From an uncultured bacterium (GTDB lineage Bacteria > Cyanobacteriota > Cyanobacteriia > Cyanobacteriales > Oscillatoriaceae), in the NCBI GenBank assembly GCA_964405435.1, contig CAYOOD010000065.1, positions 1-43,440 on the forward strand: a DNA stretch of 43,440 bases, read 5' to 3'. Below are positions 8,875 through 31,496 of this stretch, one piece after another. The position numbers and the translations under genes are program-made. Numbering within the stretch: position 1 is the stretch's first letter; every line of letters begins with the position of its first letter. The notes beneath the pieces are model-generated. The model saw only the letters and a program-made list of their open reading frames with translations. It had not been told where the DNA came from and searched no databases.

Positions 8875-9359
8875 TGTTTGGTTAAGATTGTTGTGGAGGC
8901 TGGGTGGGAGGGTTGCCGGGAAAAGGGGGAGAGGGGGGGAGGGGGAGAGGGAAAAATGAAGTGGCTTGGCTTAATTAGCTGACAGAACAGTAGGCGCAGC
9001 AGGAAGCCGTCCAAAAGGAGAATGAAAAAGCTTTTATACAGCTATCAATCCTAATTTTTTTGCTCACTTTGGCTTTTTTTCGTTCGCGTCGGATGCTTGG
9101 CCAACTGCCTGACTGCTTATTTTCATACCTGCAAAACCGCTGGAGTTCTCGTGGGCCAAAATTCGGGGAGTTGACGATGACGTAACTGTTCTATTCAATT
9201 GTAGTGTGAGCGTCCAGCGCGCCCTCCTGAAAAAACGTCTTTTTACATGCCCAGGGATGCTCGCCTTGGATGATGCCGAAACTGGATGGATGAGAACTTT
9301 GCTGGCGGATCAAAGCCTCGCCAGAACTTGCGACAACTTTTTGTATGCAGGGGGTCATA

Positions 9360-12300
9360 ATGGAATCTGAAAATCCCTCGCTGCTCTCCCAGTATAAAGA
9401 CTGTATTGAGCGCCACTGTATCGCCGTGGCTGCCGATACCGCGCTACTGGACGCTATAAAACTGATGGGGCAAACCAACGATCGCGACTTCGGCGTGCAG
9501 GCGCAGCCGGAAGTGAAACCAGAGACAGCCATGCGAACGAGCTGTGTTTTGGTGGTGGAAGGCGATCGCCTGGTGGGCTTGATGACAGAACAGGACATCG
9601 TGAGGATCGCCGCGCGAGAGGGCAGCTTGCGGGAGGTGACGGTTGCTGAGGTGATGGAGCGGCAGTTGATAACCTGCACGGAAGAAGAAGCGCGAGAACC
9701 CCTGCGAGTCATCCAACTATTGCGCCAGCACGGCATCCGCCACTTGCCCGTCACGAACGAGCGAGGTCAACCGCTAGGCATAGTGACGCCAGAGAGCATT
9801 CGCGCCACCTTGCAATCAGCAGACGTACTCAAGAGCCGAACCGTCCGAGAAGTCATGGCAGAAAGGGCGATCCACGCCCCAGCCAGCGCGACGCTGCTAG
9901 AGGTGGCCAAACTCATGGCCGAGCATCGGGCGAGCTGCGCGGTTATCGGTGCGGAGATCGCCCCGGCAAAAATTCGCCCTCTGGGAATCGTGACGGAGCG
10001 GGATCTCGTGCAAGCCCAAGCCCTAGAAGTGAATTTGAGAGAAGCGATCGCCGAACGGGTGATGAGCGCTCCCCTATTTCTAACCAGTCCCGACGATTCC
10101 CTGTGGGAGGCTCACCAACAAATGCAGCGGCTGAATATCCGGCGCTTAGTCGTTGTTGACCGCGAAGGCTATTTGGCGGGACTGGTGACACATGCGAGTA
10201 TTTTGCAAGCGATCGATTTAAACGAACTGCACGGAGTGATTGTCGCCTTGAAACAGCAGGTGCAGCAACTAAAAACCGAGAACGTCGATTTGCTAAAGCG
10301 CCTGAATAGCCAGCTCGCGCGAGAAGTGAGCGATCGCGCCGCGAGGCTGCAAGAATCCGCGCAGAAAAATCAACTCTTAGCCGATATGGCACTGCGGATT
10401 CGCGCCTCTTCGAGTTTAGACGCGATTCTCAATACCACCGTCGCCGAAGTTCGCCAACTGCTGCAAGCCGATCGCGTCATCATTTACCGCTTCGATCCCG
10501 ATTGTAGCGGCAAAGTGATTGTAGAATCTGTTGAACGAGTGGAATGGTCTATTATCAACAGTGTTGTCAAAGATGAGTGCTTCGAGGCCGGATGGTTCGC
10601 TCCGTATAAAAACCGCCGTTCCAAAGCGATCGCCGATATCGAAAATGCCGGATTGAGCCCCTGCCACGTTGATTTTTTAAAGCTGTTTGACGTGAAAGCT
10701 AATCTCATCGTCCCCATCGGGTTTGACGAGACGTTGTGGGGACTTCCGATCGCGCATCAGTGTGCGCGATCGCGGCAGTGGCAGCCGGAAGAAATAGAAT
10801 TTCTGGAAAACTTATCCGTCCAGGTAGAAATCGCGATTCAGCAAGCGACACTGATCGAGCAAATTCAAACCGCCAATGCACAACTCGCCAGCGAAGTCGC
10901 CCAGAGAACCGAGCAATTGCAGCGGGAACTCGAACGCACGCAGCGAGCCGAAAAAGCAAGCCGGGAACGGGAAGCAGTGCTGCGGAGCTTCTACGACTCT
11001 GCACCGATGATGATGGGCGTTGTGGAACTGTTAGACGATGACATCCTGCATTTATCGGACAACGCGACAACGGCGCAATTTTTCGGAACGACTCCGAAAG
11101 CAATGCAGGAACGATGCGCCAGCGAAATGGGGGCGGAACGAGAATATATTCTCTGGTGGATTAGCTATTATCGGGAGAGCCAGAGATTAGGTCAGCCCGT
11201 TCGCTTTGAATACCAGCACGAGCGAAAGGGAACGGTCAAGTATCTGTCGGCAACCGTTTCCTACATCGGGCAAGGGGAGAGCGATCGCCCCCGTTTTTCC
11301 TATATTGTCGAGGATATAAGCGATCGCAAGCTCGCAGAAATAGCCCTGCAAAAAAGCGAGGAAAAATACCGGCAAATTGTCGAAACCACCTCAGAAGGCA
11401 TCTGGGTGCTGGATGTGGAAAACAAAACCAGCTTTGTGAATGCCAAGATGGCAGAAATGCTCGGCTACACCGTTGAGGAAATGCAGGGAATGCCTTTGTT
11501 TGCCTTTATGGAAGCCGAAGAACAAAGGCTGGCGCAAGCTTATTTAGAACGCCGCTATCGGGGGATTAGCGAACATCACGATTTCAAATTCCGCCGCAAA
11601 GACGGCTCCGATCTGTGGGCGATGCTATCGACGACAGCGATTCTCGATGCGGCAGGCAACTATGCTGGTGGTTTCGCAATGCTTGCGGATATCAGCGATC
11701 GCGTGCGGGCAGAAGCCGCCCTGCGAGAAAGCGAAGAACGCTGGCAACTGGCGCTGCGCGGCACTCAGGACGGGATCTGGGACTGGAATGTCAAAGCCCA
11801 GCAAGTTTTCTTTTCCGAGCGCTGGAAGGCAATGCGCGGGTTTGAACCCCACGAAATCGGCAACTCTCTACAGGAGTGGTACAGTCGCATTCATCCTGAA
11901 GATGTGCAAAAAGTCAGACAAGCGCTCGACGATCACTTTGCCCGCAAAACGCCTTTGTTCACCGCTGAATACCGCGTGCAGCGCAAAGATGGCAGCTATA
12001 TGTGGATTCTCGACCGGGGACAGGCGCTTTGGGACGAAACCGGCAATGTCGTGCGGATGGCGGGATCGGAAAGCGACATCAGCGATCGCAAACAGGCTGA
12101 AGAATCCCTGCGCCAGAGCGAAGCCTCCCTGCGCGCCTTTTTCCGCGCCATTCCCGACGCCATCTTTCAAGTCTGCAGGGATAGAACCTGTGGCGACGCG
12201 GGCGATTTGCTCTTGCACGAGCTAGCTTCATGCGGCTCTGTGAAAATCCTCAAATCCAACCAAGAGACGAACGCAGGGCGAATTCCAGAAATCCTGCCCC

Positions 12301-15300
12301 TGGCTCTGGCACAGTTGCCGGTGCAGTACCTCGATCGGGCGATCGAAACTGGCGAGCTGCAAGTTTGCGAATACGAAATCGCTCTCGACGGCGAAACGCG
12401 CTGCCAAGAAGCCCGCATTGTTGCCAGCGAATGCGATCGCGCTTTTGTAGTCTTGCGCGACATTACCGAGCGGAAAAAAACTGAAGAAAGATTGCGAAAA
12501 TTTGAAGGCATTGTCTCGAACATTCCCGATGCCATTTTTTTGATCGACCGCGACTATACCTATCAAGTTGCCAACCAGACTTATTTAGACTGGCACGAAA
12601 CCTCCGCCGCTGAGATTGTCGGACGTTCGGTTGCCGACATGATAGGGCAGGAAGTCTTCGAGACCGTTGCCAAACCTCACCTCGATCGCTGTCTGGCGGG
12701 AGAAATTGTCCGCTACGAGCAGTGGTTTGAGTATCGCCACTCCCTGCCTCGATTTCTGAGCGTCACTTATGCGCCTTACGCCGAGCCAGACGGCACCATA
12801 TCGGGCATCGCCGTCAGCCTGCACGACTTGACAGAACTCAAACAAGCCGAAGAGGCGTTATGGCAGAGCGAACAAAGATTTCAGATTGCGATCGAACACA
12901 TGCCAGATGTCTGCGTGATTTACGATCGCGACCGGCGATTGCAGTATGTCAATCAGCAGGGATTGGAGCGGACGGGATGGCCCTTAGAACAGTTCATCGG
13001 CCAGCGAGATGAAGATTTATTTCCTCCCGAAGTGACTTCTAGCTATCTGCCGATTTTGCTGCAGACTGTTGCGACGAAAACCTATCAAGTAGGAGAGTGT
13101 ACGATTCGGCTTCCCGATGCAGAGCCCTACACCATCATTGCCAAGTACGTCCCCCTGCTCGACGAAGCGGGCGAGATTCAACAAATCCTGGGCATCACCT
13201 TTGATATCACCGATCGCCAGCGCTCCGAAGAAGCCTTGAAAGCGAGTGAAGCTCGCTTCCAAGCCTTCATGCAAAATATTCCCGCTGCCACTTGGATTGC
13301 CGATGATGCAGGCATATTAGTCTATGCAAATGCCTCATTTATGAAAGGGGTGCTGTTGTCTCGTCAGGATGCGATCGGCAGAAATCTGTTTGAAATTTTT
13401 TCGCCGGAAATGGCTCAGCAATATGTAGAGAATAACCGCCTTGTTGCTCAAGCGCAAACGGTGCTAGAAACCATTGAAACGGCAACCCGATCCGATGGTT
13501 CGCTGGGCGAATACCTGGTTTACAAATTTCCGATTCCCTCCACGTCTGAAAACTTCCTCATCGGGGGTGCGGCGATCGACATCACCGAGCGCAGGGCGCT
13601 AGAGCGAGAGCTAGCCGCGAAACAACAATTGCTGGATGCCTTTATCACGAGCGCTCCAGTGGGCATGACGGTACTCGATCGCCAGTGCCGCTACGTTCTC
13701 GTCAATGAAGCTTTAGCAGAAATTAATGGGCTATCAGTAGCCGAACATATCGGGAAAACCCCCTGGGAAATCGTACCCGATCTGGCACCGAAACAAGCGG
13801 GCATCTTTGAACATGTCCTGACAACGGGCGAACCTGTCCTCTATGTAGAGATTGCTGGAGAGACGCAGAAACTGCCAGGGGTATTGCGGACGTGGTTAGT
13901 TTCTTATTTCCCGATTCAGTCGCCGGAAACCCAACCCATCGGGCTCGGCATTGTTGTTGTCGAAATCACCGAGCGCAAGCAAGCAGAAGCCGCGCTGCGC
14001 GAGAGCGAGGAAAAGTTTCGCCAGTTGGCCGAAAACATTCACCAAGCCTTTTTTATGACTGATAAGAAGGGAAAAGTTCTTTATATTTCTCCAGCCTACG
14101 AGCGAATATGGGAGAGAAGTTGCGAAAGCCTGTATAAAAATCCTTTATCTTGGATGGAGTGCATCTATGCAGATGATTATAAACGAATCCAATGGGTTTT
14201 CAGCAGGCAATTGCGATCCAGTATATCCGTCGATGAAACTTATCGAATTGTCCGATCGGATGGACAGATTCGCTGGATTGTGTCTCGCTCGGCTCCTATT
14301 TTCGATGAAAGGGGAGAGGTTTACCGCTTTGCCGGCATTGCCGAAGATATCACAGAGCAAAAATGGGCGGAAGATGCCCTCCAGCGGCAATTGCAGAAAG
14401 CGTTGCTCCTGCAAAAAATCACGGATGAAATCCGCCAAAACCTCAACACGCAGCACATTTTTGAAACGGCTGCTATTCAAATCGGAGAGGCATTTGGGGT
14501 GAATCGCTGTCTGATTCACGCCTACATTGCCCAACCAGAACCGAGGCTGCCTTTGGTGGCGGAATACTTGCTGGGAGGCTATCCGTCGTTGAAGGACACA
14601 GAAATTCCCGTTGCAGACAATATTCACGCCCAAACCGTGTTAAGAGAAGAACGGGCGATCGCGACGCCGGATGTCTACAGCGAACCGCTATTTGAGCCAG
14701 TATTTCACCTGTGCCGTTACCTGCAAATCCAGTCAATGCTGACGGTGCGGACTTCTTATCAGGGCGAACCGAATGGTTTAATCGGGCTGCACCAGTGCGA
14801 TCGCGCCCGCGCCTGGATGCCCGATGAAATTGAATTGCTCGAAGCCGTCGCCGCTCAGATGGGAATTGCCCTGGCGCAAGCGGCTCTCTTAGAACGAGAA
14901 ACCCACAGGAGCGAAGAACTGGCGCTGAAAAACATCGCCCTAGAGCAAGCGTCGCGAGAAGCCGAAACCGCCAACCGCGCCAAGAGCGAATTTCTCGCCA
15001 ATATGAGCCACGAATTGCGCACGCCATTAAACGCTATCCTGGGATTTGCCCAAGTGATGGGCGGCGATTCGTCTCTCAAAAAGGAACACCAACAACAATT
15101 AGCGATTATCAATCGCGCCGGCGAGCACCTGCTGGAATTAATCGACGACATTTTAGAAATGTCCAAAATCGAAGCCGGTAGAGTCACTTTAAATGACACG
15201 AACTTTGACCTGCTGCACCTGCTCGATACCCTCAAAGAAATGCTGTACTTAAAAGCGCGGGCAAAAGGATTAAATCTCGCCTTCGAGCTAGCTGCTTCTC

Positions 15301-16409
15301 TTCCCTCCTTCGTGCGAACGGATGAAGGGAAACTGCGCCAAGTTTTGCTCAACATCTTGGGCAATGCCATTAAATTTACGAAATCGGGCACCGTCACCCT
15401 GCGCGCGAAAGCGAACGCGATCGAAGCAGGCAGCGGGCACCGCGAAACAGCCAGCCAAGCCCGTTTATTATTTGAAATCTCCGATACCGGCCCCGGCATT
15501 GCCCCAGCGGAAATGAACAAGTTATTTGAATCCTTCGGACAAACCGAAACAGGCCGAAAATCGGGACAAGGAACGGGGTTGGGATTGCCCATCAGCCGCA
15601 AATTCGTGCAACTGATGGGAGGAAATATCAGCGTCAAAAGCACAGTCGGACAGGGCAGCATTTTTAGCTTTAACGTTCCCGTCACGCTCATCGACGCGAC
15701 GGATGTTCTGCTGCCGACGCGGCAGCGCAAGATCGTGTGTTTAGCCCCCAATCAGCCGAGCTATCGGATTCTGGTCGTTGACGACATCTCCGACAGCCGC
15801 TTGCTGCTTTCGCAAATTCTCGCCGCCATTGGCTTCGAGGTGCGGGAAGCGGAGAATGGGCAGCAAGCCGTTGATTTGTTGCACAGTTGGCAGCCGCACT
15901 TGATTTTAATGGACATGCGGATGCCGGTGATGGACGGCTACGAGGCAACCAAACAGATTAAATCCGGCTCGAACGGAGAGGCTACAACGATTCTTGCCCT
16001 GACGGCTAACGCCTTTGAAGAAGACCGCATAACTGTTCTGGCTGCCGGGTGCGATGATTTCATTCGCAAGCCTTTTCAAAAAGAGGAGCTTTTAGAAAAA
16101 ATCGGAAAGCATCTCGGGCTCGCCTACATCTATGAAGAGGAGAGCAGCTTCAGCCAAAGCGATCGGCCAAAAACTGAAGGGATTTCTTCTCCGGCTGCGG
16201 CGATCGCGCACTTGGCTCAAATGCCGCCGGAATGGGTAGCAGAACTCTTCAAACTGGCGTCTCAATGCAGCGACGACTTGATTTTAGAATTAGTCGAAGA
16301 ACTTCCCCCCGATCGCGCTCCGCTAGCAGAAGTGGTTGCAGATCTTGCCCATAACTTCCAGTTTGAAAAAATTCTGGAATTGCTCGAACCGATGGAGAGA
16401 GCCAACTGA
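9360..16409 (+). CDS. Giant hybrid sensor histidine kinase: four CBS domains, GAF, at least seven PAS/PAC modules, a second GAF, HisKA, HATPase_c, REC and an unassigned C-terminal domain of about 90 aa. Its length is 2354 aa if started at ATG 9345.
   Basis: Start chosen at ATG 9360, which has a GGGGG Shine-Dalgarno 8 nt upstream. CBS pairs: 'LVVEGDRLVGLMTEQDIVR', 'PLGIVTPESIRA', 'PLGIVTERDLVQA', 'GLVTHASILQAI'. Repeated PAC endings read '...DITERK/DISDRK'. H-box '[21 protein letters not shown]'. 'NILGNAIKFT...DTGPGIAP...GTGLGLPISRKFV'. Receiver 'ILVVDDISDSR...LILMDMRMPVMDG...IRKPF'. Confidence 0.9.
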   Translation: MESENPSLLSQYKDCIERHCIAVAADTALLDAIKLMGQTNDRDFGVQAQPEVKPETAMRTSCVLVVEGDRLVGLMTEQDIVRIAAREGSLREVTVAEVMERQLITCTEEEAREPLRVIQLLRQHGIRHLPVTNERGQPLGIVTPESIRATLQSADVLKSRTVREVMAERAIHAPASATLLEVAKLMAEHRASCAVIGAEIAPAKIRPLGIVTERDLVQAQALEVNLREAIAERVMSAPLFLTSPDDSLWEAHQQMQRLNIRRLVVVDREGYLAGLVTHASILQAIDLNELHGVIVALKQQVQQLKTENVDLLKRLNSQLAREVSDRAARLQESAQKNQLLADMALRIRASSSLDAILNTTVAEVRQLLQADRVIIYRFDPDCSGKVIVESVERVEWSIINSVVKDECFEAGWFAPYKNRRSKAIADIENAGLSPCHVDFLKLFDVKANLIVPIGFDETLWGLPIAHQCARSRQWQPEEIEFLENLSVQVEIAIQQATLIEQIQTANAQLASEVAQRTEQLQRELERTQRAEKASREREAVLRSFYDSAPMMMGVVELLDDDILHLSDNATTAQFFGTTPKAMQERCASEMGAEREYILWWISYYRESQRLGQPVRFEYQHERKGTVKYLSATVSYIGQGESDRPRFSYIVEDISDRKLAEIALQKSEEKYRQIVETTSEGIWVLDVENKTSFVNAKMAEMLGYTVEEMQGMPLFAFMEAEEQRLAQAYLERRYRGISEHHDFKFRRKDGSDLWAMLSTTAILDAAGNYAGGFAMLADISDRVRAEAALRESEERWQLALRGTQDGIWDWNVKAQQVFFSERWKAMRGFEPHEIGNSLQEWYSRIHPEDVQKVRQALDDHFARKTPLFTAEYRVQRKDGSYMWILDRGQALWDETGNVVRMAGSESDISDRKQAEESLRQSEASLRAFFRAIPDAIFQVCRDRTCGDAGDLLLHELASCGSVKILKSNQETNAGRIPEILPLALAQLPVQYLDRAIETGELQVCEYEIALDGETRCQEARIVASECDRAFVVLRDITERKKTEERLRKFEGIVSNIPDAIFLIDRDYTYQVANQTYLDWHETSAAEIVGRSVADMIGQEVFETVAKPHLDRCLAGEIVRYEQWFEYRHSLPRFLSVTYAPYAEPDGTISGIAVSLHDLTELKQAEEALWQSEQRFQIAIEHMPDVCVIYDRDRRLQYVNQQGLERTGWPLEQFIGQRDEDLFPPEVTSSYLPILLQTVATKTYQVGECTIRLPDAEPYTIIAKYVPLLDEAGEIQQILGITFDITDRQRSEEALKASEARFQAFMQNIPAATWIADDAGILVYANASFMKGVLLSRQDAIGRNLFEIFSPEMAQQYVENNRLVAQAQTVLETIETATRSDGSLGEYLVYKFPIPSTSENFLIGGAAIDITERRALERELAAKQQLLDAFITSAPVGMTVLDRQCRYVLVNEALAEINGLSVAEHIGKTPWEIVPDLAPKQAGIFEHVLTTGEPVLYVEIAGETQKLPGVLRTWLVSYFPIQSPETQPIGLGIVVVEITERKQAEAALRESEEKFRQLAENIHQAFFMTDKKGKVLYISPAYERIWERSCESLYKNPLSWMECIYADDYKRIQWVFSRQLRSSISVDETYRIVRSDGQIRWIVSRSAPIFDERGEVYRFAGIAEDITEQKWAEDALQRQLQKALLLQKITDEIRQNLNTQHIFETAAIQIGEAFGVNRCLIHAYIAQPEPRLPLVAEYLLGGYPSLKDTEIPVADNIHAQTVLREERAIATPDVYSEPLFEPVFHLCRYLQIQSMLTVRTSYQGEPNGLIGLHQCDRARAWMPDEIELLEAVAAQMGIALAQAALLERETHRSEELALKNIALEQASREAETANRAKSEFLANMSHELRTPLNAILGFAQVMGGDSSLKKEHQQQLAIINRAGEHLLELIDDILEMSKIEAGRVTLNDTNFDLLHLLDTLKEMLYLKARAKGLNLAFELAASLPSFVRTDEGKLRQVLLNILGNAIKFTKSGTVTLRAKANAIEAGSGHRETASQARLLFEISDTGPGIAPAEMNKLFESFGQTETGRKSGQGTGLGLPISRKFVQLMGGNISVKSTVGQGSIFSFNVPVTLIDATDVLLPTRQRKIVCLAPNQPSYRILVVDDISDSRLLLSQILAAIGFEVREAENGQQAVDLLHSWQPHLILMDMRMPVMDGYEATKQIKSGSNGEATTILALTANAFEEDRITVLAAGCDDFIRKPFQKEELLEKIGKHLGLAYIYEEESSFSQSDRPKTEGISSPAAAIAHLAQMPPEWVAELFKLASQCSDDLILELVEELPPDRAPLAEVVADLAHNFQFEKILELLEPMERAN

Positions 16410-27176: not shown

Positions 27177-30100
27177 TCAATCATCGCGGCTTTGCCAGTT
27201 ATAGCAGGACTGTTTGGCTCGCTGGTAGTTGGCATCGAGGGCGGGTTCTAAGAGCAAAATAGCGGCGATGCGGCGAGCGATATTCGTCACTGTGCTGACT
27301 TCTTCGGGCCAGAGCGATCGCCCCAATATTTTTTCCTCCCGATAGCTCAGCCATTTTTTAATCACTTGATAGCCGCCGATGGTATAATCCCAAACCTTGA
27401 TCGGGATATTTTTCCAGCAGGCGCGATCGTTCAGGTAAATGTCGCAAGTGGTTGCGCCGAGCTGCTGCATAATTTCCACAGCGGCGCATTCTTCAGGGGT
27501 GTAGGAGCGCTTGAAAATTTTTCCCTTCCCCGGCATGGTGACGCCTCCCTTTCCCGCATACCCCCAACCGACTGTAATTTTTAAATCAGTATCGGCTGGA
27601 GAAAAAAGCGCGATCGCCTGCAATTCCGGGCGAATTTCCCCCGATGTCGCGCCAGAAACCCCACATTCTATATCCAGCAGCGCCGCCACTTGACGCCCCA
27701 ATTCTGATGAAGCAATTAACAATTCTTTGGAATCGGGCAGGGGAATATGGGGCCAATTTTGGCGAATGCCGTCCGCATTTTCTTGTCGGTAAATTGGCGA
27801 ATAACCCACAGCCAAAACGTGCCGCCAAATTAAGCCGGCTGTTTCCGCATCCGCGTCAGGGTTGCAGATATCCAGGCGATGGAAATACGCGCGAACGGCT
27901 GGGGAAAGATTGGCAGTTGGTGTCGCATTTTCTATTTGACAAATGCGGAAAGGAAAATGATAGGAATGCCCCCGCATTAAATCAAAATCACCCAAAGATG
28001 TGATAAAATAAAACGGGACACCTTCACGGCTAGCTGCACTGTTTGGGCGGCTGACTAAAAAAGCATTGTCGGGGAACTGGTGAATGAAAAGGGAGGGGCG
28101 GGGTTCGTTCCACAGGGGGCGCAGTGAAGTATAATAACACCATTTTAATTCATAGGGACGCAACGCATAGCGCATCAGTTGTCGCTCGTCATAGCGTTCT
28201 AAATTTAAAGCTTTTTTTCTGGCTTTCTCGGCATCGAAGCGGGCAGCATCTCGCGTCAAACCCGCGCCAGAGGCTTTGAGTTCCTCCCAGCTAACGGAGG
28301 AGTCAAAGTATTTTTGCATTCGCTCGGCAAGGGCAAATCTGTCACTGTCAATCAAACTATAGCCGCGATTTTCTTTATAGCCCGTAATGGGAGAAATCGC
28401 GCATAGATCTGTTAACTTTGGCCATTTTGAATAGGGGGTATTTGCTTCGCAGGGGCGGAAAGAGTAGCGGTTATTTTTGGTTGGGTTGACAATCTGATAC
28501 TGAGCGTTAAAATCTGCAACGTGCAGGCTGGCGAGCAAGTCAGATCGTTTTTTTGTCCCCCAAAAATGGCGAAATCGGACGATAGATTGCTCGGAGGTAT
28601 CCGCCAGGCACGCCATCAAAGCGATCGCAGTTCCGACGCGAATGCCTTGCGGGTGATATTCTGTAGAAAAAACGCTGGGATCGGCTTTCCCTTCAGGCGT
28701 AATTTTTCCGGTTTCGCGGCTGTCTCCATTCAAACAATCAAACCAGAGTTTGTCAAATTTTTCGAGCAATCGCTGCCGCATGACGGCGAAAGAGGGTTCG
28801 CTCAGATAGGAGAAATTTGAGAGGTAGCACGCCACTGCCCTGCTGTTATTTTCTGCAATCCACTGTTCGGCTAAACGGAAAAAGCGAATGTAGAGATCGT
28901 CGAGATTAAATTTCCGGATTCCCCACTCGGCATTCAGCCCTTGTTTGTAGGAGTCGGCGAATTCTCGTTCGCCTTTCAAGCCGATATCGGCAAAAGCGTT
29001 GTACGGGGGATTGCCTAGAATTACGAGAAGTGACTGAGAAGGAATGGGCGGTTTCCAGTTTGTGAGTGCATTGGCGAGATAAAAACCCGATCGCTCTTTT
29101 TCGCCAGACAAAGGCACGCCAAGGTTTTGCAATAGCAGCCCCAATTGCAAGTGAGCCACGACAAGCGGGGCTGTCAAGATGTCGCAGCCAAAGAGCCGCG
29201 CGATCGCTGCTTGTTTGACATCGCCTCCGGCGGCAGCAATGCAGTTTAAAACTTCGACTAAATACGCCCCGGTTCCGCAACAAGGGTCTATAATAAAAAC
29301 ATTGGGATTTGCCAAACCGTTTTCGATTTTAAAGTCTTCCCGCAAAACGGTATCGACGCGGGCAACCATATACTTGACAATTTCACGGGGAGTGTACCAA
29401 ACGCCCAATTCTTTGCGCAGTTGCGGATCGAATGCTTGCAGGAAAGGTTCGTAGAAATACTGAACGGCTTGCGTTTCGTCAAACTTAGAAAAAAACGCGG
29501 CGCGATGGCAGCGGTTGAGGGCTGCTGCTGCTCGCTCCAGCACTTCGGTTAAGTCTAACACTGCGCCGCCTGGAGGCTCTGCCTCTAGATAAGAAAAAAT
29601 TGCCGAAATTTCCGGCATCTGAAGATAGTGGGGAGTTGCCTTCCACTGAAATTTATCGGAGCGGGTGGGGTTTTCTCGGTGCCACAGTACCCAAGCGGAA
29701 AAGATGCCGTAAAAAAGCGTTTGAACGAAAGTAGAACAGAAGAAATCCTCGCCTGATTCTCCTTTAAATTTAACGGCTAGCGTTTCTTCAAACGCCAGGT
29801 GAACCGCAGCCAGCGCGGGAATATTAATCCGAGCCATTCGAGATTTAGCATCGCGGGCGAAAGACGCCAGAAACCAGGCTAAATCTGCCGGAGTCGCGAT
29901 CGCTGCAGCGTGGCGCATGACGCGCTGGAGGTAGTCGAGAAAGCGATCGCCTTCTGAAAGCGCGATCGCAGATGCACTGACACTCCAGAAATCCGCTTCG
30001 TTCTCGGCGAGGCGATAGCGTTCCACCAGCACCGGTTGCCGGTTCGCATCCCATTCGATTAGAATAAAATCGCGGTAATTGACAACCAAAACGAGGCGAT

Positions 30101-30437
30101 ATTGCTGCAAATCCCCGGCAAGGCGATCGCTGCGGGCAATCTCCCAAATCTCCTCGCCAGTCTCCCGAATCTCAATAACGCCGCGATCGCAATTTTGCCA
30201 GTCGAGGCTGGCTTTGTCCGAAACCTTGCGAAACTGGCTGGCACTGAAGAATCCCCCATCGGGAATTTCCGCGTTTTTGGCGTTTCTGCTGACCGTGCAG
30301 CAAACCCTCGGCTTGAGCGTTTTGCCAACCTCGTTAAAAAGAGTTTCTAAAGCGCTGCGGCAGTCAATTTCGGTGGCGAATCCGCCAGAGGAACGGATGT
30401 CGCGCAGGTGACGGAGGTAGATTTCGAGCCAATTCAT
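27177..30437 (-). CDS. MmeI-like single-chain restriction-modification enzyme (type IIL/IIG). It combines an N-terminal PD-ExK-like domain, a gamma-class N6-adenine methyltransferase and a C-terminal target-recognition region, and it is an orphan.
   Basis: N-terminus parallels MmeI: 'D-WQNCDRGVI-E-I-R' (D-x9-E-x-R) and 'YRLVLVVNYRDFILIEW'. Motif X 'FYEPFLQAFDPQLRKELGVWYTPREIVKYMV'. Motif I 'VFIIDPCCGTGAYLVE'. Motif IV 'LVILGNPPYN'. No BREX or R/S partner genes adjacent. Confidence 0.75.
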   Translation of the reverse strand: MNWLEIYLRHLRDIRSSGGFATEIDCRSALETLFNEVGKTLKPRVCCTVSRNAKNAEIPDGGFFSASQFRKVSDKASLDWQNCDRGVIEIRETGEEIWEIARSDRLAGDLQQYRLVLVVNYRDFILIEWDANRQPVLVERYRLAENEADFWSVSASAIALSEGDRFLDYLQRVMRHAAAIATPADLAWFLASFARDAKSRMARINIPALAAVHLAFEETLAVKFKGESGEDFFCSTFVQTLFYGIFSAWVLWHRENPTRSDKFQWKATPHYLQMPEISAIFSYLEAEPPGGAVLDLTEVLERAAAALNRCHRAAFFSKFDETQAVQYFYEPFLQAFDPQLRKELGVWYTPREIVKYMVARVDTVLREDFKIENGLANPNVFIIDPCCGTGAYLVEVLNCIAAAGGDVKQAAIARLFGCDILTAPLVVAHLQLGLLLQNLGVPLSGEKERSGFYLANALTNWKPPIPSQSLLVILGNPPYNAFADIGLKGEREFADSYKQGLNAEWGIRKFNLDDLYIRFFRLAEQWIAENNSRAVACYLSNFSYLSEPSFAVMRQRLLEKFDKLWFDCLNGDSRETGKITPEGKADPSVFSTEYHPQGIRVGTAIALMACLADTSEQSIVRFRHFWGTKKRSDLLASLHVADFNAQYQIVNPTKNNRYSFRPCEANTPYSKWPKLTDLCAISPITGYKENRGYSLIDSDRFALAERMQKYFDSSVSWEELKASGAGLTRDAARFDAEKARKKALNLERYDERQLMRYALRPYELKWCYYTSLRPLWNEPRPSLFIHQFPDNAFLVSRPNSAASREGVPFYFITSLGDFDLMRGHSYHFPFRICQIENATPTANLSPAVRAYFHRLDICNPDADAETAGLIWRHVLAVGYSPIYRQENADGIRQNWPHIPLPDSKELLIASSELGRQVAALLDIECGVSGATSGEIRPELQAIALFSPADTDLKITVGWGYAGKGGVTMPGKGKIFKRSYTPEECAAVEIMQQLGATTCDIYLNDRACWKNIPIKVWDYTIGGYQVIKKWLSYREEKILGRSLWPEEVSTVTNIARRIAAILLLEPALDANYQRAKQSCYNWQSRDD

Positions 30438-30446
30438 TGTAGCACG

Positions 30447-31496
30447 TCAGCCCTTTAATTCAATATCCCTGCCCCGCAGGCTATCTGCGGTATTTTTGAT
30501 AAAACTGGCGAGCGGTACGGCAATCAACAGCCCCAGCACTCCTCCTAATTTAAATCCTAGCAGCAACGCCACCAAAATCCACACCGGATTTAATCCCGTG
30601 AACCCCCCCAAAACGCGAGGAGCGACAATATTAGAATTTACCCAATCAATGGTAAAAGCAACAATTAAAACTTTGACGCCCAACCAAAAATCTTGCAGTG
30701 CCAGCAGCAGACTGACTAAAACGATACCCACCCCCGTCACCAGCGGGAAAAACGCCATAAAACCGAGGGCGAACCCAAACAGGAGGGCTAGAGGCACGTT
30801 TAGGATGGAAAATGCCAGCGTGATTGCCAGCCCGCTCGCCGCCGCCAAAGTCGCCTGACCGATAAAATAATTGTGAAAATTCTGATAGAGCGATCGCCGC
30901 ACTTGCACCCCCAATCGAGAAGGGAACCACTGAAAAAGTCCGTCCCAGAGGCGCTCGCCGTGGAGGACGAGGTAGAAAGCCAGCACAGCCGTCAGAAAGA
31001 CATTGAGGATGCTGCCGATCGTGTCGATCGCGAAGCTGAGTACCGTTCCGGTGAGGGTTTGTATTTGCTCTGTCAATCGCGCTGTCACTTGTCCAGCCAA
31101 GCCGCTCAAATCAATCGGCAAGTTGCGCGTCAGAGCCCATTGATTGAGAATCAGCAATTGTCGGCTGCCCGACTCAATCCAACTGGGGAGGCGGTTGGCA
31201 AACTCATTTAACTGCTTCAAAAAAATTGGAACAAAAATCAGCCCTAAAGTCGTCAGCATGACGCTGCCAATTAGAAAAACCAACCACAAAGCATTCTCCC
31301 GCTTTACGCCTCGTCTCTGGAGAAATCTAACTGGATAATCCAAAACAAAGGATAATAAAATAGCAGCCAAAAAAATGCTAATTTGCGGTTGAAAAAAGTG
31401 CCAGAGCTGAATCAAGATCCAGCCATTGAGAACCGATAGGGGAAATCCCACCCCCACGACTAACCATTTTGGCAGTTTGTTAACGGATGACTTCAT
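30447..31496 (-). CDS. AI-2E family transporter (PerM/YhhT-like membrane protein)
   Basis: About 350 aa with about 8 predicted TM helices. N-terminus 'WLVVGVGFPLSVLNGWILIQL'. C-terminal helices 'VWILVALLLGFKLGGVLGLLIAVPLASFIK' are typical of the family. Confidence 0.7.
   Translation of the reverse strand: MKSSVNKLPKWLVVGVGFPLSVLNGWILIQLWHFFQPQISIFLAAILLSFVLDYPVRFLQRRGVKRENALWLVFLIGSVMLTTLGLIFVPIFLKQLNEFANRLPSWIESGSRQLLILNQWALTRNLPIDLSGLAGQVTARLTEQIQTLTGTVLSFAIDTIGSILNVFLTAVLAFYLVLHGERLWDGLFQWFPSRLGVQVRRSLYQNFHNYFIGQATLAAASGLAITLAFSILNVPLALLFGFALGFMAFFPLVTGVGIVLVSLLLALQDFWLGVKVLIVAFTIDWVNSNIVAPRVLGGFTGLNPVWILVALLLGFKLGGVLGLLIAVPLASFIKNTADSLRGRDIELKG

Follow-up and report, generated by a model that had tools for sequence, protein, structure and literature searches.

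A DrdV-like Type IIL restriction-modification enzyme with a degenerate nuclease centre in filamentous cyanobacteria, a candidate solitary DNA methyltransferase

Contig CAYOOD010000065.1, 43,440 nucleotides of DNA from an uncultured cyanobacterium of the Oscillatoriaceae (hereafter the window), encodes on its minus strand a protein of 1086 amino acids (aa) that joins an N-terminal PD-(D/E)xK nuclease-fold domain to a DNA methyltransferase (MTase) and in which an arginine occupies the position of the catalytic lysine. The question raised by this locus is whether such a restriction-modification (RM) enzyme still cuts DNA, only methylates it, or has lost both activities. Our comparative analysis suggests that it is probably a DrdV-like Type IIL enzyme whose nuclease has been inactivated and which persists as a solitary MTase, depositing N6-methyladenine (m6A) on one strand. 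Its ancestor would have been a DrdV-like single-chain Type IIL RM enzyme, whose PD-ExK centre would have been inactivated by K91R together with Q105R, Y109D, S25D, and Y27R in the ancestor shared by a small cyanobacterial clade of filamentous forms that are related to Oscillatoriaceae metagenome-assembled genomes (MAGs). The polypeptide would since have been held intact by purifying selection, its S-adenosylmethionine (SAM)-binding and catalytic MTase motifs and its recognition domain being preserved; it would still bind an asymmetric site, flip the target adenine, and methylate one strand while no longer cutting, and the retained nuclease-fold domain would probably have a structural or assembly role only.

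A DrdV-like enzyme in a family labelled Type ISP

We compared the protein with Protein Data Bank (PDB) sequences using phmmer (matches read to E <= 1) and a profile of its family (E <= 0.01), and with Pfam (E <= 1). Pfam recognized an N6_Mtase domain (aa 328-494) and a Type ISP C-terminal specificity domain (aa 685-1039). The closest solved structure by sequence is DrdV, a Type IIL RM enzyme from Deinococcus (PDB 7LO5/7LVV), matched by its entry 7LO5 at 3.9e-21 with phmmer and 1e-34 with the profile and followed by the Type ISP enzymes LlaGI and LlaBIII. An AlphaFold model of the full-length protein (69 homologs in the alignment; mean predicted local distance difference test score 79.6, with low confidence around residues 444-461 and 480-488) was matched by Foldseek to DrdV over the whole length (E 3e-31) and to Type ISP enzymes at ~1e-26, whereas BrxX, CamA, BpuSI, and MmeI appeared only at 5e-10 to 4e-9. 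Since the sequence, profile, and structural matches all favour DrdV over MmeI, we place the protein among DrdV-like single-chain Type IIL enzymes, with a recognition domain of the Type_ISP_C kind; the top PADLOC model, a Type IIG restriction endonuclease-MTase, scored 3.9e-68.

Like DrdV, the protein combines in a single chain a PD-ExK nuclease, a helical connector, a gamma-class N6-adenine MTase, and a target-recognition domain (TRD). Equivalent residues (ours/DrdV) include E23/E25, D60/D64, the NPPY motif, W347/F304, and F590/F562, and the DrdV-type MTase set of W347, N476-PP-Y479, F590, and DPCCGTG is present. The profile alignment with DrdV covered the MTase and TRD regions but not the nuclease domain, so the equivalences D60/D64 and E23/E25 are based on a stretch below the HMMER threshold, on motif logic, and on the topology of the model. 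In domain order and full-length fold the protein matches DrdV, but it lacks the complete D/E/K catalytic set: DrdV K81, its catalytic lysine, is an arginine in our protein, the aspartate-to-glutamate spacing is 28 residues instead of 14, a helix preceding NPPY (ENLERAKRQNARP in DrdV) is deleted, the TRD belongs to the Type_ISP_C domain of Pfam, and overall identity is just ~17-19%.

The initial annotation had assigned the protein to the MmeI family, the Type IIL prototype, membership of which was defined by Morgan et al. 2009 as whole-length similarity to MmeI at E < 1e-20. This assignment did not survive the comparison. MmeI was absent from the PDB sequence matches of both the protein and the family profile, none of the Pfam domains MmeI_N, MmeI_hel, MmeI_TRD, and MmeI_C was found in the protein at E <= 1 (MmeI_N matched 1 of 62 family N-termini, E 0.06), and the Foldseek score of MmeI (3.9e-9) is on a par with those of CamA and BrxX. 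What the two proteins have in common is the general concept and domain order, namely a single chain with nuclease, helical spacer, gamma-class N6-adenine MTase, and TRD, and one-strand m6A protection with no partner MTase (PMC2731913), no second MTase being encoded nearby; this layout does not discriminate the MmeI family because it is common to all Type IIL enzymes. The exact D-x9-E spacing that had suggested kinship with MmeI is a coincidence, since the aspartate concerned, D79 in LDWQ, lies in a loop and in a variable alignment column (T 40, P 22, N 11, and D 9 among 118 homologs). The true catalytic aspartate is D60, which gives D-x28-E in our protein versus D-x9-E in MmeI.

The family is very large, comprising at least 8000 clusters of which many are cyanobacterial, and is labelled 'type ISP restriction/modification enzyme' by NCBI. 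The MTase and C-terminal recognition domain of our protein are indeed clearly homologous to those of LlaGI and LlaBIII (Pfam 1.9e-30; Foldseek ~1e-26; profile 5e-32), but the protein, whose 1086 aa compare with 1406-1578 aa in the LlaGI and LlaBIII chains that have been solved, lacks the superfamily 2 (SF2) helicase-like ATPase motor: no helicase or ATPase domain was found by Pfam, and residues 151-320 form instead a purely helical 170-aa connector between nuclease and MTase in the model. Family proteins of ~1150 aa carry the 'type ISP' name in NCBI and UniRef even though they are devoid of this defining motor; the name appears to stem from the Type_ISP_C domain model. Lysine-bearing cyanobacterial and environmental members (for example from Microcystis, Aerosakkonema, and Spirulina; ~1150 aa, named 'type ISP restriction/modification enzyme' or 'N-6 DNA methylase') have 50-61% full-length identity to our protein, the same domains, and the same solitary context, whereas five deletions make the proteins of our clade 65-80 aa shorter.

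Decay of the nuclease centre across the clade

An alignment of the 120 top homologs defines the nuclease signature of the family as P59-D60-G-G ... R85-G-x-x-E89-x-K91, and we extended it with 44 N-terminal fragment homologs and ~150 representatives of 50%-identity clusters. E89 is invariant (118/118), D60 nearly so (Table 1), and position 91 is a lysine in all 118 full-length homologs, in 44 of 44 fragments, and in 142 of 149 cluster representatives. Our protein reads PD60-x28-E89-I-R91, and Arg91 occurs in the alignment only here and in its 84%-identical relative P0002; the arginine noticed at the outset therefore does sit in the catalytic lysine column. In the models, D60 lies at the start of beta2 and E89 and R91 at the end of beta3, which is the canonical PD-ExK layout as described for MmeI (PMC2731913). 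A sequencing slip is not at issue because two nucleotide steps separate the arginine codons of the three clade members (CGG, CGG, and CGA) from the lysine codons of relatives (AAA/AAG). The whole ORF (open reading frame) of our protein is identical at every base in an independent Logan assembly (L002).

Position 91 did not change alone. The lineage of our protein and P0002 deviates at 42 of 338 near-invariant columns of the family, whereas the median for other members is 2 and none exceeds 21. The deviations concentrate towards the N terminus, with 10 of 42 invariant columns in the nuclease (residues 1-150; 24%), 10 of 55 in the connector (151-320; 18%), 19 of 144 in the MTase (321-600; 13%), none of 13 in region 601-684, and 3 of 84 in the C-terminal part (685-1086; 3%). 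The excess in the nuclease over the pooled 601-684 and 685-1086 regions is significant (Fisher test, p = 4e-4), and in other family members deviations are spread evenly across domains at ~0.5-1% per domain. The nuclease changes common to both proteins are S25D, Y27R, P83C, K91R, Q105R, V106L/I, Y109D, and L138V. Among them, S25D and Y27R adjoin E23, the equivalent of DrdV E25, and Q105R and Y109D affect a near-invariant pair on the helix following the E-x-K strand, which we take to resemble the QxxxY element of RecB-type nucleases. The third clade member, L011 (a partial sequence of 324 aa, ~81-84% identical), keeps R91, R105, and D109 and reads VIAIR, that is, it has replaced the otherwise invariant glutamate by alanine (E89A), as expected if, as we propose, catalysis is no longer under selection.

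The Arg91 variant is old. All three RM genes of the clade follow an AI-2E-family transporter gene with the same 10-bp spacing, and synonymous divergence (dS) among the three genomes is 0.25-0.32 for the RM gene and 0.26-0.27 for the flanking gene; as the two match, the variant predates the common ancestor of the clade and has been vertically inherited. A scan of reference genomes retrieved five lysine-bearing relatives and no further member of the arginine clade, and a search for homologs of the N-terminal region alone yielded only short fragments, none of them from this clade. The GC content of the RM gene (0.508) is close to that of the window (0.529). The nearest genomes devoid of the RM gene, those of the Oscillatoriaceae MAGs SKW80 and SKYG93, are much more divergent (dS ~1.0-1.25) and have the gene order AI-2E, MutS, Rieske, and the gene may have been gained in the clade ancestor or lost in this outgroup. 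In the window, the RM gene and a neighbouring 175-aa ORF (PF27221) form a ~4-kb segment (26559..30437) between the AI-2E gene and mutS; in SKW80 and SKYG93 a 180-bp AT-rich spacer stands in its place (L008 1521..1702). We saw no repeats or mobile-element genes at the segment junctions, though no systematic search was made.

Across the family, the catalytic lysine has been lost independently in ~5% of the representatives of 50%-identity clusters, which makes its loss a recurrent and fairly ordinary fate. Nuclease-motif losses also occur independently elsewhere, as in Oscillatoria princeps (P0006, D60A) and in P0239, P0216, P0192, and P0215. Many other ORFs of 180-350 aa (P0128-P0174) consist of the nuclease domain alone, including P0137 on a 293-kb contig and P0153 on a 937-kb one, and one such fragment carries DDE transposase domains; they may be split, truncated, or insertion-sequence-disrupted genes, or stand-alone nuclease-domain proteins.

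The methyltransferase and competing readings

In contrast with its nuclease centre, the MTase motifs of the protein are intact, as the initial annotation had noticed for motifs X, I, and IV: GVWYTP, DPCCGTG, and NPPY are present in both full-length copies, as are F590 (DrdV F562) and R600 (DrdV K567). Other full-length family members with a broken nuclease motif provide a natural control. P0239 (D60L, K91R, Q105R, and Y109H) has TPPP instead of NPPY and GVGATP as motif X, and P0216 (K91I) has NPPH. That these decayed relatives lost their MTase motifs too, whereas our clade kept its own, supports a protein retained as a methylase.

Selection estimates agree with this. Measured by the approximate pairwise Nei-Gojobori method on the one available pair of full-length genes (our protein and P0002), the ratio of nonsynonymous to synonymous divergence (dN/dS) is 0.28 for the whole RM gene (confidence interval, CI, 0.23-0.35), 0.21 for the MTase, 0.28 for the C-terminal half, 0.44 for the nuclease domain (CI 0.25-0.82), and 0.13 for the flanking AI-2E gene. 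With values well below 1, the protein is maintained by purifying selection. Constraint is weakest in the nuclease domain, whose ratio exceeds that of the remaining sequence (bootstrap P = 0.04), although this domain is not evolving neutrally.

Two outcomes had been envisaged for the arginine variant, a cleavage-impaired, methylation-only derivative or an active enzyme. The former fits the comparative evidence best, because other near-invariant nuclease residues were lost in the clade along with the lysine, E89 itself is replaced in L011, and the MTase motifs remain intact under purifying selection; we infer that cleavage has been lost and methylation retained, and consider this the probable state of the protein. 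Several observations weigh against it. On the nuclease side, D60 and E89 are kept in both full-length clade members, the E89A change is known from a single 2-kb Logan contig, and the upper CI bound of 0.82 implies that some purifying selection still acts on the nuclease domain, with the further caution that the dN/dS values come from one pair and an approximate method. Moreover, active PD-(D/E)xK enzymes with E, Q, or N in place of the lysine exist (BamHI, BglII/NotI, and MspI; PMC4081073), so that a lysine-to-arginine change alone is no proof of inactivity; our literature searches found nothing specific on measured effects of this change in PD-ExK enzymes, only the natural E/Q/N replacements documented in that work. 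On the MTase side, the conserved helix FPELxxERDAAxEVKRxKP directly before NPPY, present in family members just 40% identical and in DrdV, is deleted only in our clade, which also has four smaller deletions, and 19 of the 144 invariant MTase columns deviate; MTase activity is uncertain for these two reasons. The resulting short beta3-beta4 link presumably resembles that of minimal gamma-class MTases such as M.TaqI, which would speak against a loss of methylation.

These MTase lesions would be the natural starting point for a protein that has lost methylation as well as cleavage, a fully inactive relic or a repurposed DNA-binding protein whose ORF persists in a non-catalytic role or has simply not decayed so far. 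The helix deletion and the deviating MTase columns, the low model confidence on both sides of the NPPY motif, and the double decay of P0239 and P0216 would all be accommodated by such a history. We nevertheless regard it as unlikely, because the MTase and the whole gene have remained constrained across a dS of ~0.3 with two intact full-length ORFs, and because both full-length copies retain every catalytic and SAM-binding motif and the base-flipping residues, in contrast to truly decayed relatives.

An enzyme that still cuts seems improbable to us. Arg91, perhaps aided by Arg105, would then have to stand in for the lysine in transition-state stabilization, yielding a weaker but working Type IIL RM system, an idea to which the tolerance of E, Q, or N at this position, the retention of D60 and E89 in two of three clade members, the nuclease-domain dN/dS below 1, the persistence of arginine across a synonymous CGG/CGA change, and an independent lysine-to-arginine replacement with other motifs intact in the fragment P0215 lend some weight. 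Against this, the lysine is essentially invariant in the family, and mutants of DrdV and MmeI at this position are inactive: the active site of DrdV is built from D64, E79, and K81 with E25 and K94, and K81 mutants show no catalysis (bioRxiv 10.1101/2021.01.06.425610), while MmeI D70A, E80A, and K82A are all dead (PMC4833311). Q105, Y109, S25, and Y27 have been lost alongside, E89A in L011 shows that a metal ligand is dispensable in the clade, and no other part of the protein is under weaker constraint than the nuclease domain.

A more elaborate version of the methylation-only state can be imagined, although we hold it to be quite improbable. Purifying selection might have kept the dead nuclease fold for a new use, for instance as a non-cutting DNA-clamping or oligomerization module with Arg91 and Arg105 gripping the phosphate backbone, and loss of the pre-NPPY helix might have uncoupled methylation from assembly of the cleavage complex, turning a Type IIL restriction scaffold into a dedicated one-strand epigenetic MTase with a regulatory role in the host.

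Genomic context and implications

The gene lies among genes for MutS, a Rieske oxygenase, the AI-2E transporter, a PAS-GAF-GGDEF protein, two-component and chemotaxis proteins, cytochrome c biogenesis proteins, and a glycosyl hydrolase. As first reported, no BREX genes flank it; nor did we find a helicase, second MTase, separate restriction endonuclease, or other defence gene anywhere in the 43-kb window, and PADLOC returned no match for the neighbouring genes. We consider it very improbable that the protein serves as the methylase in some overlooked defence system of several genes, resembling BREX or Type ISP, whose other components are encoded elsewhere: the NCBI name of its homologs and the presence of BrxX/PglX among distant fold matches (5e-10) hint at one, but it has a nuclease-fold domain unlike BREX PglX/BrxX and no helicase or ATPase domain, it sits among housekeeping genes with downstream neighbours that differ between clade members, and family members in other genomes are solitary too.

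Nor is the partnerless state remarkable for a nuclease of this kind, as had been proposed. As a rule, single-chain Type IIL enzymes of the MmeI and DrdV types are encoded without a partner gene or second MTase (PMC2731913; bioRxiv 10.1101/2021.01.06.425610), and in three unrelated genomes the lysine-bearing homologs, too, have only housekeeping genes at their sides, so that solitude is the normal condition. The adjacent 175-aa ORF was considered as a partner and rejected, being a widespread cyanobacterial hypothetical protein that is not conserved beside the P0002 copy. With the AI-2E stop codon 10 bp before the RM start, the two genes are probably co-transcribed; we did not take a promoter-like site at 30463..30436 for the RM gene's own promoter because its -10 hexamer overlaps the ATG, and co-transcription is more likely.

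Table 1. Features of the RM locus, with coordinates in the window
Feature	Coordinates	Strand	Basis or remark
Whole ORF, 1086 aa: nuclease, helical connector, N6-adenine MTase, Type_ISP_C	27177..30437	-	DrdV-like Type IIL architecture
PD-(D/E)xK nuclease-fold domain, N-terminal, aa 1-150, active site degenerate	29988..30437	-	
Codon of D60 in PDGG, the true conserved catalytic Asp, kept	30258..30260	-	Asp in 117/118 homologs and 148/150 cluster representatives
Codons E89-I90-R91, E-x-K element with Arg for the invariant Lys	30165..30173	-	Homolog alignments
Codons R105 to D109, R and D in place of near-invariant Q105-x3-Y109	30111..30125	-	Q in 142/149 and Y in 140/149 representatives
Connector, all-helical, aa 151-320, no ATPase or helicase motor	29478..29987	-	Model DSSP; Pfam
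Gamma-class N6-adenine MTase domain, aa 321-600	28638..29477	-	Pfam N6_Mtase 1.1e-11; aligns with DrdV 253-571
Motif X, G345-V-W-Y-T-P350, intact	29388..29405	-	W347 equivalent to DrdV base-stacking F304
Motif I, D384-P-C-C-G-T-G390, SAM binding, intact	29268..29288	-	
Motif IV, N476-P-P-Y479, catalytic, intact	29001..29012	-	
Clade-specific deletion junction, aa 469/470, ~19-28 aa lost	29028..29033	-	Alignment; model low-confidence 444-461
Type_ISP_C target-recognition domain, aa 685-1039	27321..28385	-	Pfam PF18135 1.9e-30; 3/84 invariant positions deviate
Hairpin GAAACCCGG...CCGGGTTTC, probably a terminator	27121..27151	-	-17.2 kcal/mol; between the convergent RM gene and 175-aa ORF
AI-2E-family transporter gene, upstream of the RM gene	30447..31496	-	Syntenic anchor common to 3 clade members
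175-aa ORF, conserved cyanobacterial hypothetical protein (PF27221)	26559..27086	+	True length ~153 aa

Elsewhere in the window, an 876-aa ORF (18447..21077, plus strand) contains strongly matching Major Vault Protein domains (Vault 4e-70, MVP_shoulder 2e-54, and Vault_2/3/4) and adjoins a response-regulator/HisKA gene. The RM-free relative L008 carries another gene at the equivalent position; bacterial and cyanobacterial homologs of this protein have already been described (bioRxiv 10.1101/872010; PMC3762200). Signalling genes of the two-component and chemotaxis kinds (CheR, CheB, and several hybrid kinases) are also unusually abundant in the window, among them a gene for a giant hybrid sensor kinase of 2354 aa (9345..16409, plus strand) with CBS, GAF, multiple PAS, HisKA, HATPase, and receiver domains.

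For the family as a whole, these results have consequences for annotation, since a large group of proteins is mislabelled 'type ISP' in public databases and ~5% of its representatives lack the catalytic lysine. The loss of cleavage that we propose would otherwise be an expected kind of RM decay and implies no new mechanism. Solitary ('orphan') DNA MTases are widespread (PMC4752239), and our protein resembles those derived from RM systems in that it probably methylates without cognate restriction, is fixed in the chromosome and vertically inherited, and has a composition near that of its host; it differs from them in that the putatively dead nuclease is not a separate lost gene but a domain still attached and partly constrained. 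If the protein is indeed a nuclease-inactivated enzyme kept for methylation, it would offer a clean example of a single-chain RM enzyme becoming a chromosomal orphan methylase, and its clade would represent a natural separation-of-function mutant of a DrdV-type enzyme, with methylation but without cleavage, that could help reveal how Type IIL enzymes couple both activities and what role the pre-NPPY helix plays in them.

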